Virus record (IMG/VR): IMGVR_UViG_2687453145_000002 | Location: 52,166 to 116,165 of that record | Length of the DNA stretch: 64,000 nucleotides | From: a virus | Lineage: Duplodnaviria > Caudoviricetes | Reading direction: 5' to 3' (one strand) | Shown here: in pieces, positions 394-38,098 of the stretch | Layout of the letters: every line of letters begins with the position of its first letter | How positions within the stretch are numbered: position 1 is the first letter of the stretch | Notes under the pieces: model-generated | What the model was told of the DNA's origin: nothing | What the model saw: only the letters and a program-made list of their open reading frames with translations | Databases searched by the model: none | Position numbers and translations under genes: made by a program

Positions 394-424
394 CGATCAG
401 TCTGCATGCTGATCGCCCCATCTC

Positions 425-463
425 AAAAGCCCCAAACGGTTCGCCGCTCGGGGCTTTTCTTTT
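425..463 (+). terminator. Intrinsic terminator in the leader of the giant gene
   Basis: AAGCCCC...CGG-TTCG-CCG...GGGGCTT followed by TTCTTTT; conserved at 59923-59961. Confidence 0.75.
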
Positions 464-483
464 GCTCGAAATCCGAGGACACC

Positions 484-3400
484 ATGGACAAACTTGGACT
501 GCGTGACGCCCTGCCACAGCCGCAACAATCTGACACCCGCAATGACCCTTTCTGGGGCAACCTGGATAGCAGCCTGTCTGCTGCCGCGGCTGCACCGCCC
601 CAATCAGCCCAGCCGACTGCCAAGCGCGACCTTGATGTCGGTCTGGGTGATGTGGCGCGCGGGGTGGGTGCGGGCGCATTGGAGCTGGTCGGCGGCATTG
701 GCGAGCTGGCAAGACAGGCCAGCAACTTCGGCAAGGAGAACGCTGGCAAGCAGGGTGGGGATTATCTGGAGCAGGCCCGGGCCAATATGGCCAACAAGCT
801 GAGCCCTGTGCTGGATGCGGTTGCAGGCGCAGGTGACCTGGCCCAAGGGGGAGCTGAGTCGCTGACCGAGGGAATGAGCGCGGATGCCAAGGAGGCACTG
901 GGGCGCCGGCTGGTAGATGAAACACCGGAAGGACGTTTGACCCTGGGGGATGGTGCAGGGGATATCGATGTCTGGGCCATGAAAATGGCGCAGGGGGTTG
1001 GCTCCCTGCTGCCGACCCTGGCGGCGGGCGGCGTCACAGGATTGGCAGCCAAAGTCTCTATTGGCCGTGCGGTCACCGCATCCATGATCAAGCGTGGCGC
1101 GACCCAGGAGGTAGCCGAAGCGGTCGCCGCCAAGGCAGTATCCAAAATTGCCACCGGCGCCTCTGTGACCACCGGGGTGACCGGATCGGTGGGCAGTGCC
1201 GGGGTGAACGCCCGCGACACTGTGCTGGGAATGAGCTTTGACGAGCTGGCGGGCAGCGACACCTTCCGCCAGGCGTTCACTCGCATCGACCAGGATCAAC
1301 AGACCGCCCATCTCTCTGATGAGGAAAAGCTGGGGCTGGCCCGTGAGGAAACGGCCAACTTGGCCAGCCGAGCCACTATGAGCGACGCCAAGGTGTGGGG
1401 AGCTGCCGCCATGGGTTCCATGATGGGCGACGCCATGCTGTTCAAGATGCTGGCTGGCAAGGCGGCCACCGGTGGAGTGCTGAAAGGTGCTGCCAAGGGG
1501 GCGGCAGGTGAGGGTATCAGCGAAACCCTGGAGGAGGGGGTGCAGCAATACGCCGTCAACGAATCTCTCAACGAGGTGGCCGCCGCTGATATCGACCCGA
1601 TGAAGGGGGTCATGTCGAGCGCGATCGAGGGCGGCTTGATAGGGATGGGGGCAGGTGGTGCGGTAGGTGCTGTCGGTGGGGCGCGAGGCGGTAAGCATGC
1701 CAGCCAGGAAGATGGCGTTGGGACCGATCCGGTTTCAGAACCTTCCGCGCCGGTGACGGAGGGCGCTGCTGGTCCGGCAGTGGATCCGAACTTTGCTTCT
1801 GTTCCACTGGAAGAAGGCGAGCAGGCGCCCTCCGCCTCGCTGGCCGAGGGGGAGCTGAATCCGCTCGGCCCCAGCGCAAGCCAGTTTGACGAGCTGCGTG
1901 ATGTTCCCGCCTATCTGCGTCAAGACGATACCGCCGATCGCTACAAGGGGATGGCGGCTGATAGCGAGGTGCAGCGCGCCTTGGCGGGTGAGTTCGGCCA
2001 GACCGTGCAGGAGCTGGTTGCCTCCCAGATGAAGGCTGGCGATCAGGGCAAGAGCCTTTATGAGCGAGCTCAGGCTGGCGAGCTCGGGCTTGACCCGTTC
2101 GCAGGCAACAAGAGCGCCCAGCAGGTAGCCATGGAGAACCAGCGCCTAGCCCTGCCGCTCAAGGATGTGATCTTTGCGGGCGATGCCAATGCTAAACCCA
2201 AGGGGGAGGCAGTGGCCGCACCTGGGGATCACGATGACCAACAGGCTGGCCCCGGCCCGCAATTCCGAGGTGGTGAGCGTACCCGCTGGCAGAGCGGGCA
2301 GGAGGGGGATGTGTTGCCGCCAGAGGCATCTTCCACCAAGCCCGCTGGCGAGCTGCCGGGCGCGGTGATTGAGGGTGAGGCCCGCGAGGTGGGTAACGAG
2401 TTGCCGCACCGCAATGTGGTCTATGGCAATGACTTGCGCGCCGAGCAGCAACGGGCCGCCGATCTGGCCCGCCGTGAGCGCGAGCTGAACAACCACCCCC
2501 TGCAGATCGGTCAGTCAGAGACCATCTTTGCCGGGGGCACACCGGGCGCTGACCCGCGCAATAGCGCCTATACCCCGCCCAGGCTGTCACGGGATCAGGT
2601 CGATACCAGCATGGGCGAGCAGTCCACCCGCGATCCGCGCAGCCCGGTGGCGCAGTCCATCGAGCAGGCAGGCAGCGCCACCGATTCGGTATTTGGCCCG
2701 CTCAAGTCGTTGCGCATCACCCGCAAAGGCAAGCCGTTCGCAACCGAGAAAGAGGCTGCCATGGCCAGCCGCAAGGGCCAGGAGATGCCGGTGCCGCTCA
2801 ATGGCGGCGGCTTCGGGGTGGCCGAGATCGCCGAAGTCGAGCAGGTGAAGGCGGCTGCAACCACGCAATCAAGCGCCCCACAACTCGACGACATCAGTGT
2901 CACCAACCCGAATCAACCATCTGATCAGCCAGCTGCAAGCGTAAGCGCTGAAACAGTTCCGGCGCCGTCTGCCACCGCTGGCGAGGCCAGCCAACTAGCA
3001 CCAGCCATCGATACCGGATACCGCGAGGTGATTCCCGTCAAGCAACCCAAGACAGAGGTGAGCAATGAGCCAGTTACCCCAGTACCTGCAATCAGCAGTG
3101 AAGGACAACGCGATCAGCCTGGCGCAGGCGAACCGGCTGCAGCAGGCGCTGGACCAGCCGTTGCCGGACTCACCGACCGAGCTGGATCCGGAGATCGGGC
3201 AGATCTCGCTGCGCCTGCACCTGTACCTGACGGACAGCAGCAAAATGACCCAACACTGACAGCCCCGGCCACAGATGCCGGGGCTGCTGTTTCTGGCCGT
3301 ATTGGCGAGGAAGAGTTGCGAGATCGCGACCTGCTAAAAGAGCATGGCGGGCACTGGAAGTATCGTTCTGCAGTAGGCGCAGGCTGGTTTACTGCCAACA

Positions 3401-6400
3401 CCAAGGAGGCCGCCATTCAGCGTGCCGAGGAGGCATACCGCAAGGCAGTATCCAAAGGCGAGCCTGTGCCCACCAGGGATGAGCGGTTCGCACAGGCAGA
3501 CGCAGAGCTGTTTAGTGAAATGGATCGCCGCTACGGAAAGATGTCAACTCCCGAGCTTGAAGCAGAGTACCAGCGACTTGGTGGCGAGGTTGGCGATCTG
3601 CAAAAATCAGGCTCTGGCGAGTTCAACGGCAATGGCGGTCGCCGCACTGGGGCTGCTGTATCCAATGAAGGTGCTCGCCAGGTTGGTGAGGAACGCTTGC
3701 GCCTTGGCGTTTACATGAAGATGCGCCGCGACCGCGATACCGCGTGGTCGGGAGCCAAGTCGCAGCAGATCGAGCCAGCCAACGACTGGCGCGGCGCCAA
3801 GAGCGCAACGGATTACCACGCCGCGAAGCGTCGCCTGTTCTCTGGCGAGATGGAGTTTTCTGAATTTCAAGCGATGAGCCGTTCCGCTCTGGATAACGCC
3901 CCCTCCCTGCGGGCTGAGCTGGAAAAGAAAACCAAGCAGGATTTGCTTGATCAGATGAGCCGCTTCAATGCTGCCCGCTACAAAAATGACAAAAAGGCCG
4001 TCGTGGTCGAGGCCGCATACAACCAGCTGATCGGTGATCTGCGCTGGGCTGCCAATGGTGATGGCAATACCATCAGCGAGACCTATGCCATCGGCGGCGC
4101 CAGACAGAGTATCGAAGAGCGAGTCGCCAAGGCGCTGGATGGCCTCACCCCTGAGCGGTATCAGCAGTTCGTCAACAAGCAGCGGGCGGACGTGGCCAAG
4201 CGCGATGCCGAGTTGGCCGCCACCAAGGAGGCGCTGCGCGACCCGCAGACCCTTGAGCAGTTCAAGACCTTCCTGAAATACCGCTCGCTGGACAAGCTGA
4301 CCCCTGAGCAGCGCGCCCGCTATGAGGATTTGATCGCCGCCAGCAATCTGGACAAGCGGGATCAGGCCAACGAGGTGAAGGCTGCCACCGCCGTGACCCC
4401 GACCGCCAGCGGCGACATTATCAAAACCAAGCACACCAAGAGCGGGGAAGACCTCTTTGTGGTGCAAATGGGCGACCGGGTTGACCGCGACACCTATAAC
4501 CAGATCAACGCGCACGCCAAAAAGCTGGGCGGCTGGTATTCCTCTTACAAGGTCGGTGGCGCCGTGCCGGGCTTTCAGTTCAAGGATGAGGCCAAGGCCA
4601 CCGAGTTTCGTGGTTGGTTGACCGGTCAGGGGGCTGCCAGTGCCGCCCCGTCTGCCGAGGCAGCCCCCACCGAGGTGACTGAACCTGCCCAGACTGACAG
4701 CAAGAGCAAGCAGGTCGAGACCCTGCGCACCCGTGCCAAGACATTGCGTGACAAGGCCACCGCCGCACTCAATGCCGAGCGCAAGGAGAACACCAACAAG
4801 CGCATGACCGAGGCCGCCAACGCCCGCGCCAATGCTGAAAGTGAGTTGCACTTTGCCGGGTTGCTTGATGCCATTGCCGATGGGATTGAGTCTGGCGAGG
4901 TGACTTACCTGCGCAACCTGGCTAACGGCACCCAGTTGACCGAGCTAAACCACGCGCTAAGCCGCAGCTTGTGGAATTTGCCGCCAGCCCGCCGCGAGGC
5001 GCTGACCAGTCAGGGGATGATTGAGCGCGCTGAGGATGACCGGGAACGTTGGTCTGCCAAGGCCACCCCGGAGATGATGGCAGAAGGGGCGCAAATGCCC
5101 GGCATGGATTACTTCGCCCGCAACCTCAAAGATGTGGCAACCAAGATGCAAGGGGCAAGCGGCTTCAAGCAGGCCGGGGCCAAGATCATGGCGCTGGTCA
5201 ATGCGGCGATCAATCGTGACAGCAAGACGGTTTCCATTACCGATCCTGAGCTTATCGCCAAACTCAAAGCCTACACCAGCGGGGTGAGCGACTACGACGC
5301 CAAGGCGGTCAAGGAGCAGATCAACGGCTACAGCCGCTTGGAGCGCATGGGCATTACCAATCATACCGAGTTGCGCGCCGCCCTGCGTGAGCTGGCTCGT
5401 CTGCAAGCCGTGTTGAAAAAGCAGGCCGTGCCGCGCGACCCGTTAGCCGAGAAGATGGTCGCGCTAAAGCGCAAGTTGGTCGGCAACCGTAATGCCTTTA
5501 TCGACTTCTTCCCGACCCCTGAGAGCCACGCCGCCGATCTGGTGACGCTGGCCGGGATCGAGCCTGGCATGACGGTGCTGGAGCCATCTGCCGGGCATGG
5601 CATGTTGGCCGAGGCGGCGCGCGCTGCCGGGGCCAAGGTCGATGCGGTGGAGCTGGCTGTTGACCTGCGCGAGATATTGCAGGCGAAAGGGTTTGGTCTG
5701 GTGGGGGGCGATTTTATGGACACCACCCCGGCCCAGTCTTATGACGCCGTGGTGATGAACCCGCCGTTCTCCAATGACATGGATATTGACCATGTACGCC
5801 ATGCTTATGACCACCTCAAGCCGGGCGGGCGATTGGTGGCGATTGTGTCGGCCACGGCGGGGGATCGCCAAAACAACAAGAACAAAGCCTTCCGTGAGTG
5901 GTTTGACGGGCTAGGAGGCAGTGAGCAGGCCATGCCGGATGGCGCATTCAAGACGTCGCTCAACCCTACCGATGTGCGTACCAAGATATTTGTCATCGAC
6001 AAGCCCGCCAACGAGGTCAAGCCGCTGCTGTCGCCAGAGGGCAAGCGGGTGACGGTGGCCACCCCCAAGGGGCAGAGCGTCGAGGTGCAATACCGGGTGA
6101 TGGAGGCTGCCGATCTGGTGGCGTCCCACGACTTTGAGGGCAATCTCAACCACGACTACCCGCAGCAATTGCAGCCGCGTGACCGTAGCAAGCAGACCTA
6201 TCGGGTACAGGTGGGTCAGATTGCTGCCGCGCCGGATGGGGCGCGCCTAGCCGCCAGCCCGGAGACCGACCGGGGCGCGCCGATTGTGCGTGACGGCATT
6301 GTCGAGAGTGGTAACGGGCGCACCATTGGCTTGAAGCAAGCCTATCAGCGCGGTGATGCCGGGGCGTATCGCGCTTACCTGCTGACCCATGCCACCGAGT

Positions 6401-9400
6401 TTGGCCTTGATGCTGCCGCCATTGAGGCGATGAGCGCGCCGGTACTGGTCCGCGAGCGGCTGACCGAGATGGACGATCAGCAACTGCGTGACTTCGTGGT
6501 GGACTCCAACACCGACGCCAAGATGGCGAACAGTGCCGCCGAGGATGCCGGCGCCGACGCGGGCAAGCTGACAGACGACATGCTGGATCTGCTCAACATC
6601 CCTGAGGGGGGCGACGTACTGGCGAGCCAGAACAACCGATTCCTCCAGGCGTTCCTGTCTGCCATCGGCGAGAACCAGAGCAACAGCTATGTGAGCCGGG
6701 ACGGGCAGTGGAATGATGCCTACCGCAAGCGGGTGACGGCGGCCATCTTCGCCTACGGCTACGGCAACCAGCGGCTGCTGGATGCGGCCACCGGCGAAGT
6801 GGACGCGGACGGCCGTAACATCACTACCGCCCTGATCAACAACGCCGTGGGCATGGCCAAGTTGCGCCAGCACTCGCCGGAGCGGGCCAAGGTTATCTCC
6901 AACTACCTCGCCGAGGCAGTGGAGAGCATCGCCCGCGCCAAGCGCAGCGGGCAGTCCCTGCAAGAAATGGCCGCTCAGTCTGATATGCTGGGAGGCGACA
7001 CCAGCCCAGAGGGCAGCCTGCTGGCCCAGGCCATCGCGGCCAGCGCCCGCAGTGCCAAGGCGATCACCGGCATGGTTGGCGACATCCTGACTATGCTCAA
7101 CAAGACCACTTCCGCCGACATGTTCGGCGCGGCGGTGGACCCTGCAACCCCGGAGACAGCGATCAATGAAACCCTCAAGGCCATCAGCGCCTACAACCAG
7201 CAAAAAGCCAGCCAACCCAAGCCCGGCGGCGATCTTTTTGGCCTCGCCGGAGCACGGAATAACCACGGCGCAGCGCCAAGCGTTCCGCGATCTGGTGACG
7301 CAAGCGCAGCAAAAGGCGCAGGAGGAGTAACCGAGGGGCGCCTCGAGCTGGACGGGGTAAGTATCCGTATTCCGGCCATCGACGAGGAGCAGCAACGCCT
7401 CTACAACCAAGCCACCCACCGGGGCCAGGGCGTGAACTTTGCCAGCGGCATCAGCACCGGCGTGGGGCGGATCCTCAATGACCTGAAGGATGCCGGCCTA
7501 CTGGACACGGTAGAGCAGAGGGCGGCCGCCGAGGCTGAGGTGCAAGCCTGGGCCAATGAGGAGGCCATCAACGCCCGCAAGCTGATGCGCGACGGCATCA
7601 AAAACCCGAGCTGGGCGATCACCGGCCGTTCTGGTCGCAAGGCCCAGAGCAGCGACGCCCAGGACGCCGAGAACCGCCGCCAAGCCGCCCACCACAAAGA
7701 CCAGTCAGACCGCATCACGGCCCTGCGCGGAGAGCTGAAGAAGCTGCGCCCGAAGGAGGTGATCGGGAAAGATTCGTTCAACTACGCATGGGGCAAGGCC
7801 AAAGGCATGATCGCCGACTACGCCAGCGCCCAGAGCAACGGGCAGCCCAATCTGCTGGCCAGTCTGCGCAAGAGCATGAATGCCGAGCTGGCCCGCTACC
7901 TGCAATCCATGGGCAAGATCGACGCACCCAACTTCATCAAGACCCTGAAGGAGCAGGATCAGCGCCTGAAGGCCGCCGGCCATGACGGCTTGGTGGCCAT
8001 CGTGGGTGCGCGCTCCAACCCGGGCAAGATCATCTCCAACGCCATCGATGGCCGGATCCGCTTCTCCAAGCAAGCCATGTCACAAGGGATGCGACCTGCT
8101 AAACACCTGACTCGCAAGGAGGCTGAGCTGGTAACCAAGGGGTGGTTCAAGCAGTACCGCGGCGCTTCCGGCATAGATGTGCAGATCCACGCAACCCAGG
8201 CTGAACTGGAGGAATCCCTCGGGCTGGATGCCAAGGACGGATTGATCCGTCGCGCGGCGTTTGACGACGATGCAGGCACTCTCCATGTGGCTGCCGACAC
8301 CATCTCCGACCCCAAGCGGATGCGCGAGATCCTGCGCCATGAGGTGCTGGCCCACTACGGCCTGGCCAACGTCCTGGGTGATGGGGAATACACCAAGCTG
8401 ATGAGCCGTCTCATCCAGTCGCAGAAGGACCCCAGCATGAAGCCGGTGTGGGACTGGGTAAACACCCATTACGCCGACGAGGACATCGGCACCAAGGCCG
8501 AAGAGGTGGTGGCTCACCTCGCCGAACTGGAACAGGGGGCTTGGGGCCGTGGCTGGGATCGGGTTGTTGCTTGGGTTACCCGGGCGCTGCGAGCGGTCGG
8601 TTTTGTGCCTGATGGCATTACCGCCGCGGAGACGCGTTCCCTGATCGAGGGACTGGGCAAGAAGTTGCAGCGTAGCGGCCCAGACGACAGCGGGCCGGAT
8701 GGCGGCAAGAAGTTCAGCCAGGAAGCCGAGCGGCCAGCCCTGAAAGGCGGTATCAAGATGAGCCAGGCCAGTACCGCAGCTGATGCGGCCATGGAGAAGC
8801 TCAACCTGGGCCCCAAGCCCGACATCATCGACAAGACCAAAACCAACCTGAACAAGCTCCGTCAAGTTGACCGTGGCGTGGTCAGCTCATGGGTTGATCG
8901 CGTCATCAAAAAAGCCAATACCGAGGTGCTCGACGCGCTGGCCCCCATCAAGTACGCCGAGGAGGCTGCCGGCATTACCGATGCTGCTGACTCCGGCTAT
9001 GTGGCTGCACGGATGGCGACGGGGGCCGCCTCCACCATGCAGGCGACCATGCTTTACGGTTTGCCGGAGTGGAAGGATGGGGTGATCCAGCGCAAGGCGG
9101 GCACCGGCGAGAAGGATGCGCTGCTGGGAATCTTTGCCGACCTGGGAGCTGACCTGCACAACTGGCTGGGCTGGATGGCCGGCCACCGGGCCGAGCTGTT
9201 GCTGGCCCAAGGGCGTGAGAACCTTCTCGACGCCCAGGACATCGCTGCCCTCAAGGCTCAAGGTAAAGGCAAAGAGGCCAAGTTTCTTGACGCCAAAGCG
9301 CGCTGGAATCGGCTCAATGCCGCCACCCTGGACCTGGGACAAGAAGCTGGGCTCTTCACCAAAGAGGCCCGGGCGGAGTTCGAAAGCGAGTGGTACATCC

Positions 9401-11337
9401 CGTTCTTCCGCGAATCCGACGACGGCGACGTGATCGCCCCATTCAAGACGAAGGGCATTGCCAACCAGAACGCCGGCATCAAGAAGCTCAAGGGCGGGGA
9501 GGCCAACACCAACGACCTGCTCGAGAACATCTTCACCTCCACCTCCAAGCTGATCGACGCGTCCATGAAGAACATGGCGGCCCAGAAGACGGTTTGGAAC
9601 CTGGCGGATACCGGCATCATCGAGGTCATTCCGAAGCCAAACAAGATGGATTACCAGGCCCTTGCCAATGGCAAAGACAGGATCATGGTCAAGCTGGAGG
9701 GGGAGGACTACATGATCCGGGTTGAGGATCCGGACCTCTATCGCGCTATGACCTTCTTCGACCGCAAGCCGTTCGGCGCCATGGTCAATGTGGCGGCCAA
9801 GGCCAAGCGCCTGCTTACTGCTGGGGTCACTGCATCTCCCGAATTCATGCTGCGCAACTTCCTGCGCGACTCACTCTCCAGCTGGGCGATCAGCAAAGAC
9901 GGCTTCAGGCCGGTGATCGACTCCATCAAGGGGGTGAAAAAGACCCTGGCGATGGACGGCAGTACCATTGATGTGATGTTCAGCGGAGCCTCCTTCCTGG
10001 GCGGCTACGTGAATGGCAATGACCCAGAGGCGATGGCCGATACCGTGCGTAAGTCGCTGCGACGCAAGGGGATGACCCCGGAGCAAATCGCCCGCTACGA
10101 AAAGAGCATTATCCGCAACGCCGCTCAGGCAAAGGGCGTGGTTGCCAATGTGTGGGAGAAGTACAACCGCTATGGCGAGGCTTTCGAGAATGCCAACCGC
10201 GAGGCGGTCTATGCCGCAGCCATCAAGGCTGGCAAGAGCCACGCCCAGGCGGCGTTCGAGTCGAAGGACCTGATGGATTTCTCCATGCTGGGTGCCTCAC
10301 GCACCATGCAGGTCATGACCCAACTGCTGCCGTTCTTCAATGCCAGGGTCCAGGGTCTCGGCAAGCTGAGCCGTGAGCTGCGCGACAACCCGCGCGAGAT
10401 CGCCAAGCGTGCCGGCATGATCACGGCAGCAAGCCTGGCGCTGCTGGCCCTCAACTGGGATGACGAGCGCTATGAGAAGCTGCCGGACTGGGACAAGGAT
10501 GCGAACTGGCACTTCTGGATTGGGGATGAGGAGTTCCGCATCCCCAAGCCGTTCGAGATTGGGGTGTTGTTCGGCACCATCCCGGAGCGCATGGTGCGCG
10601 CCATGGGCGGGAAGGACACTGGCGCGCAACTCGGCAAGGCGATAGCCAGGGCGGTCGGTGAAACGTTCGCGCTCAACCCCACGCCGCAGATCGTCAAGCC
10701 GTTGGTGGAATCCTACTTCAACTACGATGCCTTCCGTGGCATCCCCATCGAGAACGCGCAGGACCTCGCAGTGCAGGCGGAGGCTCGCTACAACGAGCAG
10801 ACCAGTCTGATGATGCGTGAGCTTGGCGAAACCCTGGGTATGTCACCCAAAAAGCTGGAGCACCTGCTGATCGGCTACACGGGCACCATCGGCAGTTACG
10901 TGATGGCGGCGGCCGATGGCCTGATCCGGGCCGGCACGCCCGGGGAGTCTGCAAGCTGGCGCGCCGACGAGATCCCGCTTGTGAAAGCGGTGTACCGCGG
11001 CACTGGCCCTGCAAAGTCCACGCAGCACATGGAGGAGTTCTACCGGATGCTGAACGAGGTGAACCAGCTCAAGCGCACCGTTGACCAGTACCGCAGTGAG
11101 GGGCTCACAGATAAGGCCCGCGAGCTGCTGGAGGAGCAGGGTGGGATCTTGAAGTCGCGCCGCAGCCTGAGCCGCACTCAGCAGCAGGTCCGGGTGGTGC
11201 GCAACAAGATCGAGCTGATCCAGCGCGACCGCACAATGACCGCAGAAGAGAAGCGCCGGCGCATCGATGAGATGCTGGCCCGCCGTAATGACCTAGTGTA
11301 TCAGGCAGTCAATAAGAACAAGGCGAACTGGGAGTAA
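484..11337 (+). CDS. Giant polyvalent ejection protein (~3617 aa): N6-adenine MTase-like, ParB-like, zincin and LPD38-like domains
   Basis: Start MDKLGLRDALP after GAGGA, matching the paralog at 59981; motifs FFPTP/VLEPSAGHG/VVMNPPF, LQPRDR...VESGNGR, LRHEVLAHYGL, RIPKPFEIG; terminal position typical of 933W-like phages. Confidence 0.9.
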   Translation: MDKLGLRDALPQPQQSDTRNDPFWGNLDSSLSAAAAAPPQSAQPTAKRDLDVGLGDVARGVGAGALELVGGIGELARQASNFGKENAGKQGGDYLEQARANMANKLSPVLDAVAGAGDLAQGGAESLTEGMSADAKEALGRRLVDETPEGRLTLGDGAGDIDVWAMKMAQGVGSLLPTLAAGGVTGLAAKVSIGRAVTASMIKRGATQEVAEAVAAKAVSKIATGASVTTGVTGSVGSAGVNARDTVLGMSFDELAGSDTFRQAFTRIDQDQQTAHLSDEEKLGLAREETANLASRATMSDAKVWGAAAMGSMMGDAMLFKMLAGKAATGGVLKGAAKGAAGEGISETLEEGVQQYAVNESLNEVAAADIDPMKGVMSSAIEGGLIGMGAGGAVGAVGGARGGKHASQEDGVGTDPVSEPSAPVTEGAAGPAVDPNFASVPLEEGEQAPSASLAEGELNPLGPSASQFDELRDVPAYLRQDDTADRYKGMAADSEVQRALAGEFGQTVQELVASQMKAGDQGKSLYERAQAGELGLDPFAGNKSAQQVAMENQRLALPLKDVIFAGDANAKPKGEAVAAPGDHDDQQAGPGPQFRGGERTRWQSGQEGDVLPPEASSTKPAGELPGAVIEGEAREVGNELPHRNVVYGNDLRAEQQRAADLARRERELNNHPLQIGQSETIFAGGTPGADPRNSAYTPPRLSRDQVDTSMGEQSTRDPRSPVAQSIEQAGSATDSVFGPLKSLRITRKGKPFATEKEAAMASRKGQEMPVPLNGGGFGVAEIAEVEQVKAAATTQSSAPQLDDISVTNPNQPSDQPAASVSAETVPAPSATAGEASQLAPAIDTGYREVIPVKQPKTEVSNEPVTPVPAISSEGQRDQPGAGEPAAAGAGPAVAGLTDRAGSGDRADLAAPAPVPDGQQQNDPTLTAPATDAGAAVSGRIGEEELRDRDLLKEHGGHWKYRSAVGAGWFTANTKEAAIQRAEEAYRKAVSKGEPVPTRDERFAQADAELFSEMDRRYGKMSTPELEAEYQRLGGEVGDLQKSGSGEFNGNGGRRTGAAVSNEGARQVGEERLRLGVYMKMRRDRDTAWSGAKSQQIEPANDWRGAKSATDYHAAKRRLFSGEMEFSEFQAMSRSALDNAPSLRAELEKKTKQDLLDQMSRFNAARYKNDKKAVVVEAAYNQLIGDLRWAANGDGNTISETYAIGGARQSIEERVAKALDGLTPERYQQFVNKQRADVAKRDAELAATKEALRDPQTLEQFKTFLKYRSLDKLTPEQRARYEDLIAASNLDKRDQANEVKAATAVTPTASGDIIKTKHTKSGEDLFVVQMGDRVDRDTYNQINAHAKKLGGWYSSYKVGGAVPGFQFKDEAKATEFRGWLTGQGAASAAPSAEAAPTEVTEPAQTDSKSKQVETLRTRAKTLRDKATAALNAERKENTNKRMTEAANARANAESELHFAGLLDAIADGIESGEVTYLRNLANGTQLTELNHALSRSLWNLPPARREALTSQGMIERAEDDRERWSAKATPEMMAEGAQMPGMDYFARNLKDVATKMQGASGFKQAGAKIMALVNAAINRDSKTVSITDPELIAKLKAYTSGVSDYDAKAVKEQINGYSRLERMGITNHTELRAALRELARLQAVLKKQAVPRDPLAEKMVALKRKLVGNRNAFIDFFPTPESHAADLVTLAGIEPGMTVLEPSAGHGMLAEAARAAGAKVDAVELAVDLREILQAKGFGLVGGDFMDTTPAQSYDAVVMNPPFSNDMDIDHVRHAYDHLKPGGRLVAIVSATAGDRQNNKNKAFREWFDGLGGSEQAMPDGAFKTSLNPTDVRTKIFVIDKPANEVKPLLSPEGKRVTVATPKGQSVEVQYRVMEAADLVASHDFEGNLNHDYPQQLQPRDRSKQTYRVQVGQIAAAPDGARLAASPETDRGAPIVRDGIVESGNGRTIGLKQAYQRGDAGAYRAYLLTHATEFGLDAAAIEAMSAPVLVRERLTEMDDQQLRDFVVDSNTDAKMANSAAEDAGADAGKLTDDMLDLLNIPEGGDVLASQNNRFLQAFLSAIGENQSNSYVSRDGQWNDAYRKRVTAAIFAYGYGNQRLLDAATGEVDADGRNITTALINNAVGMAKLRQHSPERAKVISNYLAEAVESIARAKRSGQSLQEMAAQSDMLGGDTSPEGSLLAQAIAASARSAKAITGMVGDILTMLNKTTSADMFGAAVDPATPETAINETLKAISAYNQQKASQPKPGGDLFGLAGARNNHGAAPSVPRSGDASAAKGAGGVTEGRLELDGVSIRIPAIDEEQQRLYNQATHRGQGVNFASGISTGVGRILNDLKDAGLLDTVEQRAAAEAEVQAWANEEAINARKLMRDGIKNPSWAITGRSGRKAQSSDAQDAENRRQAAHHKDQSDRITALRGELKKLRPKEVIGKDSFNYAWGKAKGMIADYASAQSNGQPNLLASLRKSMNAELARYLQSMGKIDAPNFIKTLKEQDQRLKAAGHDGLVAIVGARSNPGKIISNAIDGRIRFSKQAMSQGMRPAKHLTRKEAELVTKGWFKQYRGASGIDVQIHATQAELEESLGLDAKDGLIRRAAFDDDAGTLHVAADTISDPKRMREILRHEVLAHYGLANVLGDGEYTKLMSRLIQSQKDPSMKPVWDWVNTHYADEDIGTKAEEVVAHLAELEQGAWGRGWDRVVAWVTRALRAVGFVPDGITAAETRSLIEGLGKKLQRSGPDDSGPDGGKKFSQEAERPALKGGIKMSQASTAADAAMEKLNLGPKPDIIDKTKTNLNKLRQVDRGVVSSWVDRVIKKANTEVLDALAPIKYAEEAAGITDAADSGYVAARMATGAASTMQATMLYGLPEWKDGVIQRKAGTGEKDALLGIFADLGADLHNWLGWMAGHRAELLLAQGRENLLDAQDIAALKAQGKGKEAKFLDAKARWNRLNAATLDLGQEAGLFTKEARAEFESEWYIPFFRESDDGDVIAPFKTKGIANQNAGIKKLKGGEANTNDLLENIFTSTSKLIDASMKNMAAQKTVWNLADTGIIEVIPKPNKMDYQALANGKDRIMVKLEGEDYMIRVEDPDLYRAMTFFDRKPFGAMVNVAAKAKRLLTAGVTASPEFMLRNFLRDSLSSWAISKDGFRPVIDSIKGVKKTLAMDGSTIDVMFSGASFLGGYVNGNDPEAMADTVRKSLRRKGMTPEQIARYEKSIIRNAAQAKGVVANVWEKYNRYGEAFENANREAVYAAAIKAGKSHAQAAFESKDLMDFSMLGASRTMQVMTQLLPFFNARVQGLGKLSRELRDNPREIAKRAGMITAASLALLALNWDDERYEKLPDWDKDANWHFWIGDEEFRIPKPFEIGVLFGTIPERMVRAMGGKDTGAQLGKAIARAVGETFALNPTPQIVKPLVESYFNYDAFRGIPIENAQDLAVQAEARYNEQTSLMMRELGETLGMSPKKLEHLLIGYTGTIGSYVMAAADGLIRAGTPGESASWRADEIPLVKAVYRGTGPAKSTQHMEEFYRMLNEVNQLKRTVDQYRSEGLTDKARELLEEQGGILKSRRSLSRTQQQVRVVRNKIELIQRDRTMTAEEKRRRIDEMLARRNDLVYQAVNKNKANWE
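3065..3259 (+). CDS. Candidate nested small gene (64 aa) in the +1 frame of the giant gene
   Basis: GAGGTGA SD before ATG; helical-looking product; followed by a GC-rich hairpin at ~3260-3294. Confidence 0.5.
   Translation: MSQLPQYLQSAVKDNAISLAQANRLQQALDQPLPDSPTELDPEIGQISLRLHLYLTDSSKMTQH
7166..7330 (+). CDS. Candidate nested small gene (54 aa) in the +1 frame of the giant gene
   Basis: GGAG upstream; MKPSRPSAPTTSKKPANPSPAAIFLASPEHGITTAQRQAFRDLVTQAQQKAQEE*; lies in a linker after the ParB-like region. Confidence 0.35.
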   Translation: MKPSRPSAPTTSKKPANPSPAAIFLASPEHGITTAQRQAFRDLVTQAQQKAQEE

Positions 11338-11410
11338 GGGGTAATAGCGGCCCTAGCTGAGCCTCTGTGATAGGGGTAATCTGGGGCCTTTATCGCAGAG
11401 GGCCCTGACC

Positions 11411-11611
11411 ATGTGGATTCTGTTTGCTCTGATAATGATGGTGGTGGCGCTGAAAGCATTCAGTGTTAGTTTCACCCTAGCGTTGATACCGATAGCGATA
11501 GGGGTCTGGTGTTTCAGTAAATCCAACCGTGAGAGCCTGGATAACTTCATGGCCTTCACTTTCATCATTGTACTGATTGGTTTTGCTGTGAATGTGTTGG
11601 TTTCGCCTTAG
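11411..11611 (+). CDS. Small membrane protein (moron)
   Basis: 66 aa, 2-3 hydrophobic segments, GAGGG SD, lower GC than flanks. Confidence 0.75.
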   Translation: MWILFALIMMVVALKAFSVSFTLALIPIAIGVWCFSKSNRESLDNFMAFTFIIVLIGFAVNVLVSP

Positions 11612-11793
11612 TAAGGTGTAAGTTGCGCATCACTCTCACCAAGTGATGTCTTGAACATACTGGTTTCACGGATCTATGTCACATTGCCGTTGGCTAGTTT
11701 TGTTAGGCTCAACTTAACTACCGAAATGGTATTGATCTTATTGCTTAGTCATGGGATAAGAGGCAGACCCAACTTATGCACAGGATGTGCGTA

Positions 11794-11822
11794 TTGACAA
11801 TTGGGTGCGTTTTTGGTATAGT
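11794..11822 (+). promoter_or_regulatory. Near-consensus sigma70 promoter of the moron
   Basis: TTGACA-17bp-TATAGT with extended -10 TG. Confidence 0.85.
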
Positions 11823-11852
11823 ATTGCGACTCGAAAATCGATAGAGACTCGT

Positions 11853-12614
11853 ATGACCACCACTGTGTGCGATTTCATTAACAGGGTTGTTGCAAGTGAT
11901 TCTCGGTGGTCAACAAAGTTAGATGATTATGGTTTCTACAACCATATCGCTTTTGTCGATGACACCGGTTTTGGAAAGTTGTCGATAAGAGGCAATCACG
12001 TCTTATGCTTAGCAGGTGACGGGAAGCTTATCGAGCAGTGGAAGCAGTGGTGGAAGGCGCCGGTTTTGTATCGGGAGCATCCTCCGGTAGTTTCCGATGC
12101 TGGGGCTGTAGTGATCTATGCAATCAATAGAGCCACTAATCAGCTCGAGTTTGGGCTTCAATTGAGTTGCGCTCACTTAGACCCAGACACTCGCCATATA
12201 CAGGCTGTTTTTTCTGGTTCTGGCGAGACGGCTGCACTGTCAAACTGGCAATCAGCCAAATGCGCTAAAACCGCAGTAGAGCAAGCAAAGCTCAGAGACG
12301 TGTTTACAGGTGGTACTGTACGTTTCGTCAATTTGAGCACCGATGAGATGGACATTGAGGATGAATTGGATTCCCTTGATGCTGTGCTTAATCAATTGCA
12401 AGAGAGAGGGTATGTTATGAGACAAGACGACCCCATGAAAACTATGATTCCTGTTAAAGAATTTGACGCAAAAACTATATCGGCCCTTGCATCAAACGGT
12501 TCTTTGCAGCTATCCGCTCCTTGTGGCAACGAGGCTGTTGTCTGGGATGAGGCTGCCAAGCATAGACTTGGGGCCTTCATTGATAGAGTTATAGAATCGG
12601 AAAGCCGTTCTTAA
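11853..12614 (+). CDS. Proteasome-beta/HslV-like Ntn-hydrolase (253 aa) with C-terminal extension
   Basis: True start (M)TTT lies downstream of the promoter; motifs T1, ASDSR, GK, LAG, SGSG, RDVFTGG in proteasome order. Confidence 0.7.
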   Translation: MTTTVCDFINRVVASDSRWSTKLDDYGFYNHIAFVDDTGFGKLSIRGNHVLCLAGDGKLIEQWKQWWKAPVLYREHPPVVSDAGAVVIYAINRATNQLEFGLQLSCAHLDPDTRHIQAVFSGSGETAALSNWQSAKCAKTAVEQAKLRDVFTGGTVRFVNLSTDEMDIEDELDSLDAVLNQLQERGYVMRQDDPMKTMIPVKEFDAKTISALASNGSLQLSAPCGNEAVVWDEAAKHRLGAFIDRVIESESRS

Positions 12615-12634
12615 TCTATTGATATTATTAGCTT

Positions 12635-12668
12635 AAACCCGTGCATCATGTGCGGGTTTTTGTTTTTT
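12635..12668 (+). terminator. Intrinsic terminator of the moron
   Basis: AAACCCGTGCA-TCA-TGTGCGGGTTT plus T-tract. Confidence 0.8.
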
Positions 12669-12812
12669 GGCTAATAGCTCTAGTAAGTGATCATAAGCGG
12701 GAACCTACAGATATCCGATGTCATTCATCTTTTCGTATTGATCTAAGTCAGCAAAATAGTTCCTGCTCTTCCGTCCCTGGTTAATTTTGTTGATAACCAG
12801 TACATGGGGGCA

Positions 12813-13259
12813 TTATTGCCCCTCTTGCCCCTCTTGCCCCTCTTGCCCCTCTTGCCCCTCTTGCCCCTCTTGCCCCTCTTGCCCCTCTTGTGTTCCTGAC
12901 TTTCTGTCAGTATTTCTCATAACCGCTTTCACTTTCTTTCGCACTTCGTCAGTCATTACACTCCTGATGCTGTTCAGCAGCTCTCTGACCTCTCGCAGTT
13001 CGTCATTCAGAATCTGTGAGTTGTAGATTACTTGAGGGACAAGCACAGTGTCTGGAGACAGCGGGTGCGGAATGCTCGTACTTTTGAAGATCTGCTCACC
13101 ACCACTCTCAGCAAGTTCAGCGTCTTCCTCAAAAGTCCTTTGAAGCCGATAAACGATCTCTGCGTTCATCGTTCGGCCAGCTGCAGCTGCAGCTTCATGG
13201 ATGGCAGTGTGTAGCTCCCTTGGTAGGCGCAACGCAGTCTTCTGTATGTCTTTGCTCAT
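12813..13259 (-). CDS. Arc/Mnt-family ribbon-helix-helix repressor (Mnt-like) with an (EGQ)8 tail
   Basis: TALRLPRELH...GRTMNAEIVYRLQ; divergent from arc-ant; paralog 62480-62779. Confidence 0.85.
   Translation of the reverse strand: MSKDIQKTALRLPRELHTAIHEAAAAAGRTMNAEIVYRLQRTFEEDAELAESGGEQIFKSTSIPHPLSPDTVLVPQVIYNSQILNDELREVRELLNSIRSVMTDEVRKKVKAVMRNTDRKSGTQEGQEGQEGQEGQEGQEGQEGQEGQ
12816..12890. repeat. 9-bp tandem repeat (TTGCCCCTC)x8
   Basis: Directly visible; encodes the EGQ repeats on the minus strand. Confidence 0.97.
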
Positions 13260-13339
13260 GAGGTGTGACTTTGGTTTGTTCAGTAAGCATTAGCTTAACA
13301 AAAGCAATAGGTGAATTCATTCGGACTTTATCAAATCGC

Positions 13340-13392
13340 TTGCCTTCACTATGAAGTCTAACTATCATTAATTTCGACTTCACAGTAAAGTC
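13340..13392 (+). promoter_or_regulatory. Pant-like promoter with two 17-bp palindromic operators
   Basis: TTGCCT-17-TATCAT; GCCTTCACTATGAAGTC (13342-13358) and GACTTCACAGTAAAGTC (13376-13392); cf. GGCTTCATAGTGAAGCC at 62881. Confidence 0.7.
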
Positions 13393-13411
13393 TAGGTGAG
13401 AAGGAGGAGTG

Positions 13412-13582
13412 ATGATAGAAGACAAGGTACGCAACACATCCCTGCGCTTACCGCGTGAGATACGCGATTGGTTAACGAACCGAGCAGCAGATAACTGCCG
13501 CAGCTTCAACGGTGAGATCACTATGATCCTGAAGCAGCAGATGGAGAGGGAGCAAGATAGTGAGAAAGCAGAGTCGGTCTGA
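13412..13582 (+). CDS. Arc-like repressor (56 aa), below the ORF-track size cutoff
   Basis: AGGAGG SD; MIEDKVRNTSLRLPREIRDWLTNRAADNCRSFNGEITMILKQ... Confidence 0.85.
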   Translation: MIEDKVRNTSLRLPREIRDWLTNRAADNCRSFNGEITMILKQQMEREQDSEKAESV

Positions 13583-13585
13583 TGC

Positions 13586-13664
13586 CAGAAAGAGTTCGAC
13601 CCCAACTGGTGGAACAGTTGAGGCCGAGAGATGTAAACCCACCACGCAAATGATTGGAGTTACT
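13586..13664 (-). ncRNA. Sar-like antisense RNA covering the antirepressor RBS
   Basis: Two minus-strand hairpins with G.U pairs that covary with 63101-63179; -10 TATAAT lies inside the first ant codons. Confidence 0.65.
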
Positions 13665-13666
13665 TT

Positions 13667-14467
13667 ATGATTATACAACAACAGTATCAGCAAACCAAAG
13701 TTTTGCCAGGGCCGCTGAATTCCATGCCGGTAATCGCCGGGGTGGAGATCACTACTGATGAGGCGGGGCGGTTCAACCTGAACGCCCTTCACCGGGCCAG
13801 TCAACTTGGTTCGAGCAAAGCCCCAGCTCAGTGGTTGCGCACCAAGCATGCGCAAGAGCTGGTCGCTGAGGTGGAAAAACAAACTGTGCAGATTTGCATA
13901 GTTTCCGTTGAAGGCCGTAACGGCGGTACCTTCGCCCACGAGTTGCTTGCGATCTCCTATGCTGGCTGGATCAGCCCATCATTCCAGCTTCAGGTCAATC
14001 AGGTGTTTCTGGATTACCGTATCGGCAAGCTGGGCCCAATCACCCCACAACTGACCACCATAGAGATCCTGCAGATCGCCATGCAGTCCGAGCAAGAACG
14101 GCTGCGCCTGGAGGCCGCCAACCACGAGTTGGAACTGCAGATGGAGGCAGCCAAACCCATGGTGGAGGCGCTGGAGAGGATCGCTTTGGCCGATGGCTCG
14201 CTGAACCTGACCGAGGCCGCCAAGGCGCTGCAACAGCAGCCGAAGAAGTTCAATCAGCACCTGTGCAGCCTGCGCTGGATCTACAAGCGTGCCGGTGGCA
14301 AGCAGTGGCTTGGTTATCAGGACAAGGTGCAGCAGGGACTGGTTGAGCACAAGGTTACGATGGTGCCCTTGGCTGATGGCGGTGAGCGTCTTTGTGAACA
14401 GGTTCGCATCACACCAAAGGGGCTGACCAAGCTGGCCCAGCAATTCTGTGTCGGGGGTGTGCAATGA
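13667..14467 (+). CDS. ant: Antirepressor, KilA-N plus ANT/KilA-C domains
   Basis: GRFNLNALHRA...GGTFAHELLAISYAGWISPSF; ADGSLNLTEAAKAL...QVRITPKGLTKLA. Confidence 0.9.
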   Translation: MIIQQQYQQTKVLPGPLNSMPVIAGVEITTDEAGRFNLNALHRASQLGSSKAPAQWLRTKHAQELVAEVEKQTVQICIVSVEGRNGGTFAHELLAISYAGWISPSFQLQVNQVFLDYRIGKLGPITPQLTTIEILQIAMQSEQERLRLEAANHELELQMEAAKPMVEALERIALADGSLNLTEAAKALQQQPKKFNQHLCSLRWIYKRAGGKQWLGYQDKVQQGLVEHKVTMVPLADGGERLCEQVRITPKGLTKLAQQFCVGGVQ

Positions 14468-14918: not shown

Positions 14919-15156
14919 TTTCTTGGGGCATTTTTGGGGCAAAAAGAGGGGTAAAATACGGGGAAATGCGGTGTTTGATGGGATACATCCGAGGCAATAA
15001 AACTGGCCTCAAGCCTTATGCCAAGCGGCTTGGCAATGGATCCTGATAGAAATCAATCATTCCTTTGCCGGGAATTGTGGGGGTTGACTATTTATCTAAT
15101 AAATCAATCGCTTACTGTTGGATCTTTTTTTCTTGGGGCGTCATTGGGGCAAAAAG
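14919..15156. other. attP-like junction: arm-type direct repeats and an IHF site
   Basis: 28-bp direct repeats 14919-14946 and 15129-15156 (3 mismatches, each with two TTGGGGC 11 bp apart); IHF consensus AATCAATCGCTTA at 15102-15114; adjacent to the int 3' end. Confidence 0.75.
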
Positions 15157-16392
15157 GCCTTTTGATTGCATCTGCTCCCAGATCCTGACCGCCTCAGATT
15201 TGCTCGCCGAGGCGATCCACTTTCCGTAGACGGATTGTAACATTTCAAGGTCAGCGTGACCCATTTGCGCTGCAATATACGCGAGATTTCCATGCGACGT
15301 CAGGTTCCAACTAGCAAACGTATGCCTAAGTTGATAGAAGCGCCGGTATCTTACTCCGGCTCTCCTCATGATGTTGCTCCAGGCATGAGACACCCCGGCG
15401 GCGGTGAAGAACTCTTTGGCGTGTGGAACATGGGGGCCCGTCACCTTAGGCGTGAATACCGGCCTGATGCTCTGGCGCTCGATACGACCGTTCATGTCCA
15501 CATCTACCGACACCACAGCACGCATGAACGACAATGCCATCTGTGACTTGAGAGCTGCGATCACGGGCGGTTGCAGATCAACCTCCCGGGGCTCGTTGGT
15601 CTTGGGCAGTTTGAAATAGTCCGATTCGTTACTGATGTTCCTGCTGATGACCATGACCCCTTTTTCGAGGTCGATGTCCTCCCAAGCAAGAGCCCTCAAC
15701 TCGCCTGTTCTAAGGCCAGTATAGATGGCAAGGGTGATCATGTTTCGTTGCTGCTCGTGGGAGCATGCTTCCAGCAGCCGGGTGTATTCATCAAATTCGA
15801 AAGGGTCTGCCGGTGAGGTTTTTCTGGTGGTGACGGGCCTCACACCTGCTGTGAGTCTTGCTGCATCCGCAAGTAAGTTGTTCTTCTCACACCAGCGAAG
15901 CAACTGCCTGAATCGCCCAAGGTAGGTGACGATGGAGCTGGGTTTGAGTGAGATGTGCAGCTCATTGCGGATCAGCTCTATGTCCTTGGGCATCAGCGTT
16001 GAGACCTGTCGGTCCTTACCCAGGACATTGATGCACGCCTCAATGGCGAACGGGTAGCCATGACGAGAGGTAGGCTTCAGCATCGGTTTGTGAAGCCGCC
16101 AGAAATCCTGATAGGCCTCCCAGATGGTGACGTTTCGCCGGCTTCCTCCAAATCGAGTCAGTGCTGAGCTGTCAGGGAAATGATGTGCGTAGCTGAAGGT
16201 ACCGACCGCAATCTCATGCTTGATGGTTGCGAGCTTGTTGGTGGCAAACTTCACGTTCGCCTTGGTGATGGGGAGGTCGAGGACCTCCCGGCAGCGCGCC
16301 CGTTTATAGGTGAAGGTAATGCGCAGCTTTTTGCCATGAACCTCCAATCCAGTGACTCCAGCTACTAGATCATCAAGTTTGACTCGACCCAC
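15112..16392 (-). CDS. int: Tyrosine integrase with DUF3596-type arm-binding domain
   Basis: TGLEVHGKKLRITF N-terminus; YTGLRTGE, YQLRHT, QMGH...VYGKW catalytic motifs. Confidence 0.95.
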   Translation of the reverse strand: MGRVKLDDLVAGVTGLEVHGKKLRITFTYKRARCREVLDLPITKANVKFATNKLATIKHEIAVGTFSYAHHFPDSSALTRFGGSRRNVTIWEAYQDFWRLHKPMLKPTSRHGYPFAIEACINVLGKDRQVSTLMPKDIELIRNELHISLKPSSIVTYLGRFRQLLRWCEKNNLLADAARLTAGVRPVTTRKTSPADPFEFDEYTRLLEACSHEQQRNMITLAIYTGLRTGELRALAWEDIDLEKGVMVISRNISNESDYFKLPKTNEPREVDLQPPVIAALKSQMALSFMRAVVSVDVDMNGRIERQSIRPVFTPKVTGPHVPHAKEFFTAAGVSHAWSNIMRRAGVRYRRFYQLRHTFASWNLTSHGNLAYIAAQMGHADLEMLQSVYGKWIASASKSEAVRIWEQMQSKGLFAPMTPQEKKIQQ

Positions 16393-24920: not shown

Positions 24921-25808
24921 CTACTTGGGTTGGTATTTCTCGAAGTAGCTTGCCGCCAACTCTTGGCCTTTGGCTAGTTGATCTGGGGTGAGTCGCTTCG
25001 CGGCATTATCACGTGCATCGTGGGAGCTCCGCTCGCCATTTGCTGCAGCAACAGAATACCAAGCGTATGACTTCACATAATCCTGCGGTACCCCTTCACC
25101 TCGCGCATATCCTGCACCTAAGTTGTATTGCGCATCTGGTAAACCTTGCTCTGCGGCTTTTCGATACCAAGAGAAAGCCTTTTTGAAGTCTTGCCGCACA
25201 CCTCGACCTTGGTAATGTATCACCCCGAGATTGTACTGCGCTTCGGCAACACCTTGTTCGGCGGCCTTGCTGTACCATATCAAGGCTTTGCTAAAATCCT
25301 GTTTTACTCCTTGGCCCTGATCGTACATTACGCCAATGTTGTATTGCGCTGAAGGAAAGCCTTGCTGGGCCGCCTTGTTATACCAGTCGAACGCCAGTTT
25401 TTTATCCTGCACCACAGTAGTGCCACTGGCATACATCCACCCAAGCTGGTTTTGTGCGGCAATCAAACCAAGGTCGGCTGCTTTTTTGAACCAGAACACG
25501 GCGGTTTTGTTATTTTGCGGAACGCCTCGGCCATCTTCATACATACCGCCTAAAAAGAACTGTGAAGTTGCATGGTTTTGTTCGGCTGCTTTTTGGTACC
25601 AAAATACTGCTTGCTTATCATCCTGAGGTACACCGTCACCAATGTCATAGCTAAACCCAAGGCGATATTGGTCGTCCCTACTGCCAGCCTCGGCTAGCTT
25701 CATAATCTTGGCGATGTCAGTATTATCTGGCTCTGCCTGCGCTACTGGCATAACCAGCAACGTCAACCCCAGCAACACCGCTCCTATCCAACCCCCTACT
25801 CGATTCAT
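24921..25808 (-). CDS. Exported Sel1-like repeat protein (moron)
   Basis: Signal peptide ending AQA; repeated AQYNLG.MY..G.GV.QD...A..WY.KAAEQG; lower GC. Confidence 0.92.
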   Translation of the reverse strand: MNRVGGWIGAVLLGLTLLVMPVAQAEPDNTDIAKIMKLAEAGSRDDQYRLGFSYDIGDGVPQDDKQAVFWYQKAAEQNHATSQFFLGGMYEDGRGVPQNNKTAVFWFKKAADLGLIAAQNQLGWMYASGTTVVQDKKLAFDWYNKAAQQGFPSAQYNIGVMYDQGQGVKQDFSKALIWYSKAAEQGVAEAQYNLGVIHYQGRGVRQDFKKAFSWYRKAAEQGLPDAQYNLGAGYARGEGVPQDYVKSYAWYSVAAANGERSSHDARDNAAKRLTPDQLAKGQELAASYFEKYQPK

Positions 25809-34914: not shown

Positions 34915-35259
34915 ATGGAAAGCAAGCTGAAACCTATCGCCCTACAAGTCGCCGGTTGGGGGCTGCTCCAGGGCGATTTCTTTGACTTTCACGAGGTGGC
35001 AGAACGGCTGGGTGTCCCTGCTGAGGTGTCCCGCGAGGCGGTCATTTATCTCCGGTCACTCCGCTATGTGGAGACGCTGGCGGAGTCGAGAAGCTGCAAG
35101 CGTGAGGTGGGCAAGAGAAGCTCAAAGCGAGTGTTTATCAAGGTCCTGGCCATCCACCCCGAACCGCCTCAAGGTTCACAATCTTTCAAGCTCAATGTCC
35201 TGCACTCAAAGTTGGCCCGCCTTTCCAAGGCTATGCCTTCACCTCGGGGAGCTCGCTGA
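34915..35259 (+). CDS. CaiF/GrlA-family transcriptional regulator
   Basis: [11 protein letters not shown]...VAERLGV...VIYL...[10 protein letters not shown]. Confidence 0.65.
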
Positions 35260-36930: not shown

Positions 36931-36948
36931 GGTTTTAGGCTCACAATG

Positions 36949-38079: not shown

Positions 38080-38098
38080 CCTTCATCTAAATGAAGAG

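Follow-up and report, generated by a model that had tools for sequence, protein, structure and literature searches.

What does a gene at the right end of a prophage encode when its product carries the active-site order of a proteasome subunit and stands without an unfoldase gene beside it? This question is raised by the gene for a 253-residue protein, P0001, in a 64,000-nucleotide (nt) window, which is the final 64 kb of the 116-kb provirus record IMGVR_UViG_2687453145_000002 of IMG/VR (positions 52,166 to 116,165 of that record). The analysis indicates that P0001 is very probably a very divergent N-terminal-threonine hydrolase of the proteasome-beta/HslV superfamily (MEROPS T1), most probably of the RPC group of proteasome homologs, encoded by an autonomous moron gene. 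This grading concerns identity and excludes the role of the protein. The features of the gene are listed below with their window coordinates.

11794-11822, plus strand: predicted sigma-70-type promoter, TTGACA-17-TATAGT, with a TG extension before the -10 element (11/12 match)
11853-12614 including the stop codon, plus strand: coding sequence of the 253-residue proteasome/HslV-like protein P0001, set by the open reading frame (ORF) and by the starts of the family
11853-12362, plus strand: residues 1-170, predicted proteasome-like N-terminal nucleophile (Ntn) hydrolase core without helix H2
12363-12611, plus strand: residues ~171-253, family-specific C-terminal extension, modelled as helices, short strands and a long terminal helix
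12635-12669 (stem 12635-12659), plus strand: predicted intrinsic terminator with an 11-bp stem, a 3-nt loop and a T-run

The initial annotation had moved the start codon to ATG 11853 on account of a promoter inside the ORF call, and this relocation is upheld. The promoter is the sole site of at least 11/12 on either strand of the window, where block shuffles give a mean of 0.23 sites, and its sequence is identical in a metagenome contig, L059. The predicted transcript start lies at about 11829, some 23 nt 5' of the ATG. Since the promoter is located 3' of the alternative in-frame GTG 11787, a transcript from it cannot use that codon. Translation from ATG 11853 yields a protein beginning MTTTV, and the identical 253-residue sequence is present in public collections. 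Among 206 family proteins, 179 begin with M/V/L-TT (MTT in 171, V/LTT in 8) and about 11 further ones carry the motif behind an over-called extension; the remaining proteins are N-terminally truncated calls, one MST start and one MTV start. The comparative data put the predicted translation start at the ATG immediately preceding the threonine, and not at an upstream codon. It is very improbable that translation begins at GTG 11787 to give a 275-residue precursor, whose 22-residue propeptide would be cleaved off autocatalytically, in the manner of proteasome beta subunits. The reading frame stays open as far up as 11787, the frame of an alphaproteobacterial HslV in one related locus (L015) is open upstream of its TT in a way consistent with an extension, and propeptides are known in proteasome beta subunits and some HslV (PMC8665760). 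However, the strong promoter lies inside the extension, most homologs start with MTT as counted above, extensions are not conserved in the family, and the same survey reports propeptides solely for proteasome beta subunits and HslV (PMC8665760).

The motifs ASDSR, K, AG, SGSG and DxxTGG, which had been read as following the order of the proteasome active-site residues, are all present and are conserved in the family. In P0001 they take the form VVASDSRW (14-19), K42, LAGDG (53-57), FSGSGE (120-125) and DVFTGG (149-154). A word-indexed search returned 68 relatives of 238-279 residues and one 148-residue fragment, and all those with a source name were labelled 'hypothetical' or 'uncharacterized'. 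The full profile search returned 437 clusters at E<=1e-3 and 184 at E<=1e-30, nearly all of which align from residue 1 to about 250. When 199 family proteins at 26-80% identity were compared, the column of Thr2 contained Thr in 191, Ser in one and a gap in seven; Asp16 was kept in 197 and Arg18 in 198, and Lys42, Gly55, Gly122, Ser/Thr123, Gly124, Asp149 and Thr/Ser152 were invariant in all 199. Gly186, Met189, Ala222-Pro223 and Trp231 are conserved in the C-terminal extension. A functional label is given by PHROG 1040, 'peptidase HslV family', which matches P0001 at E 1.8e-11 across residues 1-173 (profile positions 14-169 of 277) and is matched by 34/34 aligned relatives. It is hardly credible that the gene is a decaying or non-functional remnant without a current role. 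The copy in L059 does diverge after codon ~71, yet P0001 has an intact frame, the 199 proteins show hardly any variation in the catalytic and C-terminal columns, and both the breadth of the family in the profile search and the conserved terminators described below speak against decay.

Structure prediction, which had been proposed as the check on an Ntn-hydrolase fold, came out in favour of it. In an AlphaFold2 model built from 34 sequences, with a predicted local distance difference test (pLDDT) score of 92.1 and a predicted template modelling (pTM) score of 0.88, the predicted core is the alpha-beta-beta-alpha sandwich of proteasome beta subunits. The top Foldseek matches of this model in the PDB are all proteasome beta or HslV chains, with model residue 2 aligned to chain residue 1, and matches in BFVD are phage proteins named proteasome subunit beta, HslV or Ntn hydrolase; among the best of these is a 146-residue 'Proteasome subunit beta' of Caulobacter phage CcrBL9. 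The proposed catalytic residues are Thr2, Asp16, Arg18, Lys42, Gly55, Gly122-Ser123-Gly124, Asp149 and Thr152. The model places Thr2 on strand 1, Asp16-Ser-Arg18 after strand 2, Lys42 before strand 43-46, Ala54-Gly55 at the end of strand 49-56, Gly122-Ser123-Gly124 after strand 116-122, and Asp149 and Thr152-Gly-Gly after the H3/H4 helices. Assignment of secondary structure with DSSP gives a helix at 57-68, a helix-free stretch up to strand 85-92, and helices at 125-135 and 138-145; the model thus retains H1, H3 and H4, and H2 is absent.

The extra tail that had been noticed beyond the proteasome-like core was found at residues ~170-253. In the full-length model this extension is confident (block means 79-95), and when it was folded alone from 10 sequences its pLDDT fell to 70 and its pTM to 0.39. 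Because confidence falls in this way, the extension appears to lean on the core, although the lower scores may also be due to the thinner alignment. The models suggest that it packs against the core rather than forming an independent domain. No structural relative of it was found in the structure searches.

It has been reported that 22 new proteasome homologs could be described computationally (Fuchs, Alva and Lupas 2021; PMC8665760), and judged by its features P0001 most probably belongs to one of them, RPC. RPC falls together with PPH in group I, the HslV/BPH-related proteasome homologs; it misses H2, keeps H1, H3 and H4, carries an extra C-terminal domain without a known structural match, and is found in Proteobacteria only, with 79 sequences in nr90 (PMC8665760). 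Like P0001, it has the Thr1/Asp17/Lys33/Gly47 core, no propeptide, no H2, an extra C-terminal part and a proteobacterial distribution. Counted over named members, with unnamed metagenome members left out, the sources of the present family are all Gamma-, Beta- or Alphaproteobacteria (Pectobacterium, Serratia, Enterobacter, Vibrio, Pseudomonas, Cupriavidus, Methylopumilus, Komagataeibacter and others). RPC is not marked as phage-borne in the published Table 1, whereas relatives of P0001 were found here in 36 IMG/VR (pro)virus contigs, in prophage cargo slots.

Other known groups fit less closely. PPH, a protein of ~140 residues from phages and their hosts (PMC8665760), is phage-borne like P0001, misses H2 and has no unfoldase gene, but it is about 110 residues shorter and without the C-terminal extension. 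BPH and Anbu are described as chromosomal genes that keep H1-H4 (PMC8665760), whereas P0001 is phage-borne and has no H2. Escherichia coli HslV shares with P0001 the fold, the MTT N-terminus and the GSG and D..(S/T)GG motifs; it requires HslU, which is encoded adjacent to it (hslU abuts hslV), whereas P0001 has no linked ATPase, has lost H2 and has gained the extension. The literature searches turned up no study, whether experimental or concerned with defence, that deals with RPC, PPH or HslV-like proteins of phages. The family is thus already in print computationally and experimentally untouched, and the present locus adds a prophage-borne member.

Several results weigh against the assignment of P0001 to a proteasome-like family carried as an autonomous prophage gene. 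P0001 has no match in Pfam even at E<=10, and the Pfam Proteasome model PF00227 has no match in the record, yet it detects HslV in 5/5 host genomes. Comparison of the family profile with E. coli HslV by hhalign gives a probability of 2.5% over a 15-residue chance segment; against a 5-sequence HslV profile, which is shallow (effective number of sequences ~1.5) and says little, the value is 1.5%, again over a 15-residue chance segment. The single-sequence search of the PDB with P0001 returned chance matches only. The template modelling (TM) scores from Foldseek are modest, 0.32-0.41 by query with root mean square deviations of 7-10 Å, because of the extra C-terminal part. The proposed residue equivalences, such as that of Lys42 with Lys33, rest on the order of motifs and secondary structure elements, and for Asp16, Lys42 and Gly55 on strand order in the model. 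None of the 20 clusters that were looked up has the RPC representative WP_140207863 (KEGG OC.1493145) as a member. PADLOC-DB 2.0 gave 0 defence families for P0001 at E<=10, and a tblastn search of 50,697 GenBank phage records with P0001 and P0019 gave no match at E<=1e-3. Moreover, a strict promoter match is found upstream of the gene in only 11/42 related loci, against 4/42 inside the gene.

NCBIfam gave a chance match only (E 0.046). In the alignment of the family profile with yeast beta5 the GSG and D..SGG motifs fall correctly on residues 129-130 and 166-170, which favours the assignment, although the match at E 0.3-1.7 is not significant on its own. The failure of PF00227 on P0001 reflects the reach of that model, and the weak sequence links to canonical members are read as extreme divergence and not as evidence against the fold. 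The new homologs of the published survey are likewise described as too divergent for plain sequence methods (PMC8665760).

A partner of such a hydrolase was sought in the record and in related loci. The survey covered 36 IMG/VR loci and 11 genome loci, and terminator and promoter counts refer to 42 distinct loci. Several of these are near-duplicates (L030-32, L042/43, L051-53 and L025-27), and the counts therefore overstate the number of independent contexts. In line with the initial annotation, which had seen no partner ATPase, a match to AAA_2 (HslU/Clp-type) is absent from the whole 116-kb provirus record, and across the 47 related loci no gene for an ATPase recurs in linkage with the homolog. 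A constantly linked gene of any kind was likewise not found across them. A canonical HslV-type gene is present in 5/5 host genomes checked, and an HslU partner is therefore probably present in the hosts. BPH reportedly forms double heptamer rings. P0001 might act as an alternative peptidase, with HslV-like rings that dock on host HslU or another AAA+ unfoldase and redirect ATP-dependent proteolysis. The host genes just mentioned, the MTT N-terminus common to E. coli HslV, and the place of the protein in the HslV/BPH-related group I would favour such docking. It is nevertheless rather improbable, because the loss of H2 and the ~80-residue extension would remodel the HslU-facing surface, the similarity to HslV lies below detection by Pfam and hhalign, and BPH and Anbu indicate that group members can do without an unfoldase (PMC8665760).

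The same structural features bear on an enzyme of another kind, a monomeric or low-order, sequence-specific enzyme resembling connectase, which would act as a ligase, a transpeptidase or a single-site processing protease and not as a compartmentalised machine for degradation. Connectase shows that the fold can serve a specific ligase, and it too is without flanking helices; some of the new homologs are reported to look incompatible with multi-layer rings (PMC8665760), and the conserved C-terminal part of P0001 could cover the active site or select the substrate. On the other hand, connectase is described as having neither H1 nor H2 and as carrying a helical insertion between S3 and S4 (PMC8665760), whereas P0001 retains H1, H3 and H4. 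We regard a connectase-like activity as unlikely.

The initial annotation had described the gene as a stand-alone moron with its own terminator, and this description stands. The terminator begins 21 nt past the stop codon and has a minimum free energy of -18.1 kcal/mol (z -3.5). In 33/42 distinct related loci, the window included, the 120 nt past the gene contain a terminator-like hairpin with a T-run, compared with 0/41 and 0/41 in two control windows inside the gene and 2/41 upstream. The promoter is less regular, and since a strict match was found in so few of these loci, many family copies may be read through from cI rather than from their own promoter. The GC (guanine plus cytosine) content of the cassette is 0.42-0.49, against 0.60-0.64 in the upstream flanking phage gene. 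With its foreign GC and its own predicted promoter and terminator, the gene has the sequence features of an independently transcribed accessory gene, that is, a moron.

The boundaries of the cassette can also be followed in metagenomes, as a scan for close relatives gave one partial locus, L059, which shares window positions 11398-12065 at 93.6%, including the promoter and a 66-codon ORF, and diverges on both sides. Three contigs from public wastewater runs stop at both cassette boundaries: one of 1418 nt (X1) covers 11428-12845 with 0 differences, a second (X3) covers the same span with 3 differences, and a third of 1413 nt (X5) covers 11434-12845 with 6 differences. These runs are labelled 'RNA-Seq' and are probably DNA. 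A tblastn search of 72,556 plasmids with P0001 gave no match at E<=1e-3. In the collections searched, the family was seen only integrated or in metagenomic viral contigs.

The position of the cassette in the prophage is given by the following features.

406-11337, plus strand: 'polyvalent' protein of 3643 residues with LPD38, ddrB-like ParB and S-adenosylmethionine (SAM)-methyltransferase domains
11398/11428 to ~12845: low-GC cassette, delimited by composition and by the contig and L059 boundaries
11411-11611, plus strand: hydrophobic 66-residue ORF at the left edge of the cassette, with two membrane helices by eye
12813-13259, minus strand: Arc-domain, Mnt-like gene
13409-13582, plus strand: Arc-like gene
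13667-14467, plus strand: KilA-N/ANT antirepressor gene
15112-16392, minus strand: integrase gene of the next (right) prophage
Record positions 35968-40607: earlier portal-capsid copy of the left prophage, 91% identical to the right-prophage block

The record consists of two related prophages in tandem, as the portal-capsid module at window positions 42324-46970 has a 91% identical earlier copy; it represents a tandem double lysogen. The proteasome-like gene belongs to the left prophage and is placed at its right end, in a P22-like right arm, where the cassette is flanked by the gene of the giant virion-type protein and by the divergent mnt-like/arc-ant module. In the annotated P22 genome the order is ejection genes 7-20-16, sieA, and mnt (minus) facing arc-ant (plus). 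Because the architecture here matches this order, the cassette occupies the slot that in P22 holds the superinfection-exclusion gene sieA. By the same reasoning the 3643-residue polyvalent protein, which occupies the position of the P22 ejection proteins, is probably a virion-delivered, multi-domain protein of anti-restriction or takeover function.

Some further observations were made in this part of the record. The 66-residue ORF of the cassette is kept, with amino-acid substitutions, in L059 and has no Pfam match; this ORF could represent another moron, perhaps for a membrane exclusion protein, or could act together with the protease-like gene. The idea of a membrane protein that recurs as a partner was rejected, as the small membrane ORF occurs here and in L059, different ones lie upstream in L049 and L009, and none is family-wide. 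The segment 12813-14467 has the form of a P22-type immI module, with the Mnt-like gene (minus) opposite the Arc-like and KilA-N/ANT antirepressor genes. Contigs of two public runs (X1 and X3) join 13018 to 14001, and therefore an immI variant lacking ~982 nt circulates. At 12813-12885 a 9-nt unit, CCCCTCTTG, is repeated in ~8 tandem copies and encodes the (QEG)n tail of the Mnt-like protein. A single public contig jumps 45 nt in this repeat (12815 to 12861), so the number of CCCCTCTTG units differs between copies. The right prophage (window 15112-64000) opens at its integrase and has genes for RdgC, an S24 CI-type repressor and O/DnaB replication proteins, as well as a umuDC-like pair (35231-36930, minus strand) and a P22-like portal. 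Its early region also encodes a 294-residue protein of six Sel1 repeats (24921-25808, minus strand), which is unusual cargo.

The map positions of the relatives are informative. In 9/36 IMG/VR loci, and in genome locus L011, the gene lies directly 3' of a CI-like repressor on the same strand. This slot directly after cI is the one in which lambda carries rexAB. In 5/36 IMG/VR loci, and likewise in genome locus L006, the gene lies antisense in a lambdoid region of nin type, with dinI on one side and a C5 methylase on the other. An integrase lies within two ORFs in 5/36, and UmuD/PolV-like neighbours are found in 4/36. In locus L046 the gene is flanked by the portal gene and a gpA-like replication gene, an interval described as the P2 old/tin anti-phage hotspot (Rousset et al. 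2022; PMC9122126). In the papers on P2/P4 hotspots, that one included, proteasome, HslV and protease are absent from the main text, and their supplementary tables might list them. The resemblance to P22 sieA, P2 old/tin and lambda rexAB is one of map position only, as there is no sequence or fold relationship to P0001.

Genome loci outside obvious prophages adjoin conflict genes. The Pseudomonas-type loci L001 and L004 have capH/capP-like regulators and a NACHT NTPase as neighbours, L008 a type I restriction-modification system and L010 toxin-antitoxin pairs. In the first two (L001:6316-8762 and L004:6352-8762) the homolog lies ~730 nt past genes for a capH-like helix-turn-helix protein and a capP-like M78 peptidase on the same strand, and it faces the gene for the 615-residue NACHT NTPase; at these loci a DNA-damage-responsive switch may control the homolog. 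The gap between it and the capP-like gene holds two small ORFs, which were considered as partners and rejected because their composition looks non-coding. In a Methylopumilus metagenome-assembled genome (L009:8001-11601) the homolog is convergent to an operon of a JAB-ThiF (E1) fusion and a multiubiquitin-E2 fusion. Ubiquitin-like conjugation beside a proteasome homolog is suggestive, but it is seen in 1/11 genome loci only.

The repeated occurrence of SOS or immunity genes as neighbours bears on the idea that P0001 is a prophage-internal regulator of the SOS response or of induction, which would remove repressor fragments, antirepressor, or UmuD-like or DinI-like proteins and would not be directed at other phages. 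The CI-like S24 repressor, dinI and UmuD/PolV-like neighbours counted above, the CapH/CapP-like DNA-damage-switch genes upstream in L001 and L004, and the mnt/arc/ant immunity region that the window gene adjoins are all consistent with it. Against it, the gene and such neighbours often lie on opposite strands, a terminator of its own follows the gene, these slots are cargo hotspots of a generic kind, and related phages evidently manage without the gene, since the flanks of L059 differ on both sides of the cassette. Such internal regulation is improbable.

The most likely of the roles is protection of the lysogen, in which the enzyme would cleave a target of phage or host origin and so cause superinfection exclusion or abortive infection; in our estimate it has somewhat less than an even chance. 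The placement of relatives behind cI and in the P2 old/tin interval, and that of the present gene in the sieA slot, makes this anti-phage guess plausible by analogy. The gene neighbourhood is suggestive of a conflict role and proves nothing. The readings of the role discussed here overlap, and the grades given to them do not form an exclusive set.

The RPC-type hydrolase may be pictured to work as follows. In the lysogen, the sigma-70 promoter of the cassette would drive its transcription. The threonine of HslV is exposed by removal of the methionine, and host methionine aminopeptidase would strip Met1 of P0001 in the same way as that of E. coli HslV, another protein with an MTT start, to free the amino group of the threonine. 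Lys42 and Asp16 would then help the Thr Oγ to attack the peptide bond, and Gly55 would form the oxyanion hole. The C-terminal extension would pack on the core, replace the missing H2 surface and supply assembly, gating or substrate recognition without an unfoldase. A more specific form of the protective role is tentative: the RPC-type homolog could be a single-gene prophage immune effector, namely a constitutive, self-gated Thr1 protease whose extension senses a component of the incoming phage, after which a phage or host protein is cleaved and superinfection is blocked.

Unfoldase-free proteasome homologs (Anbu, BPH and the 22 groups) are a standing puzzle, because they are widespread and have an intact active site, and almost none has a known substrate. 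The present locus gives RPC a concrete setting, a one-gene cassette that recurs in lysogen-protection slots, in which its function is directly testable. If P0001 is an exclusion or abortive-infection protease, it would represent a new enzymatic class in bacterial immunity and would link the proteasome fold to prokaryotic antiviral defence. If it acts as a single-gene effector, it would be the first proteasome-family enzyme in bacterial antiviral defence, and lambdoid, P22-like and P2-like prophages would carry it in their rex, sieA and old/tin slots. Should the defence role prove false, P0001 would still be a compact orphan Thr1 enzyme for structural and substrate studies.

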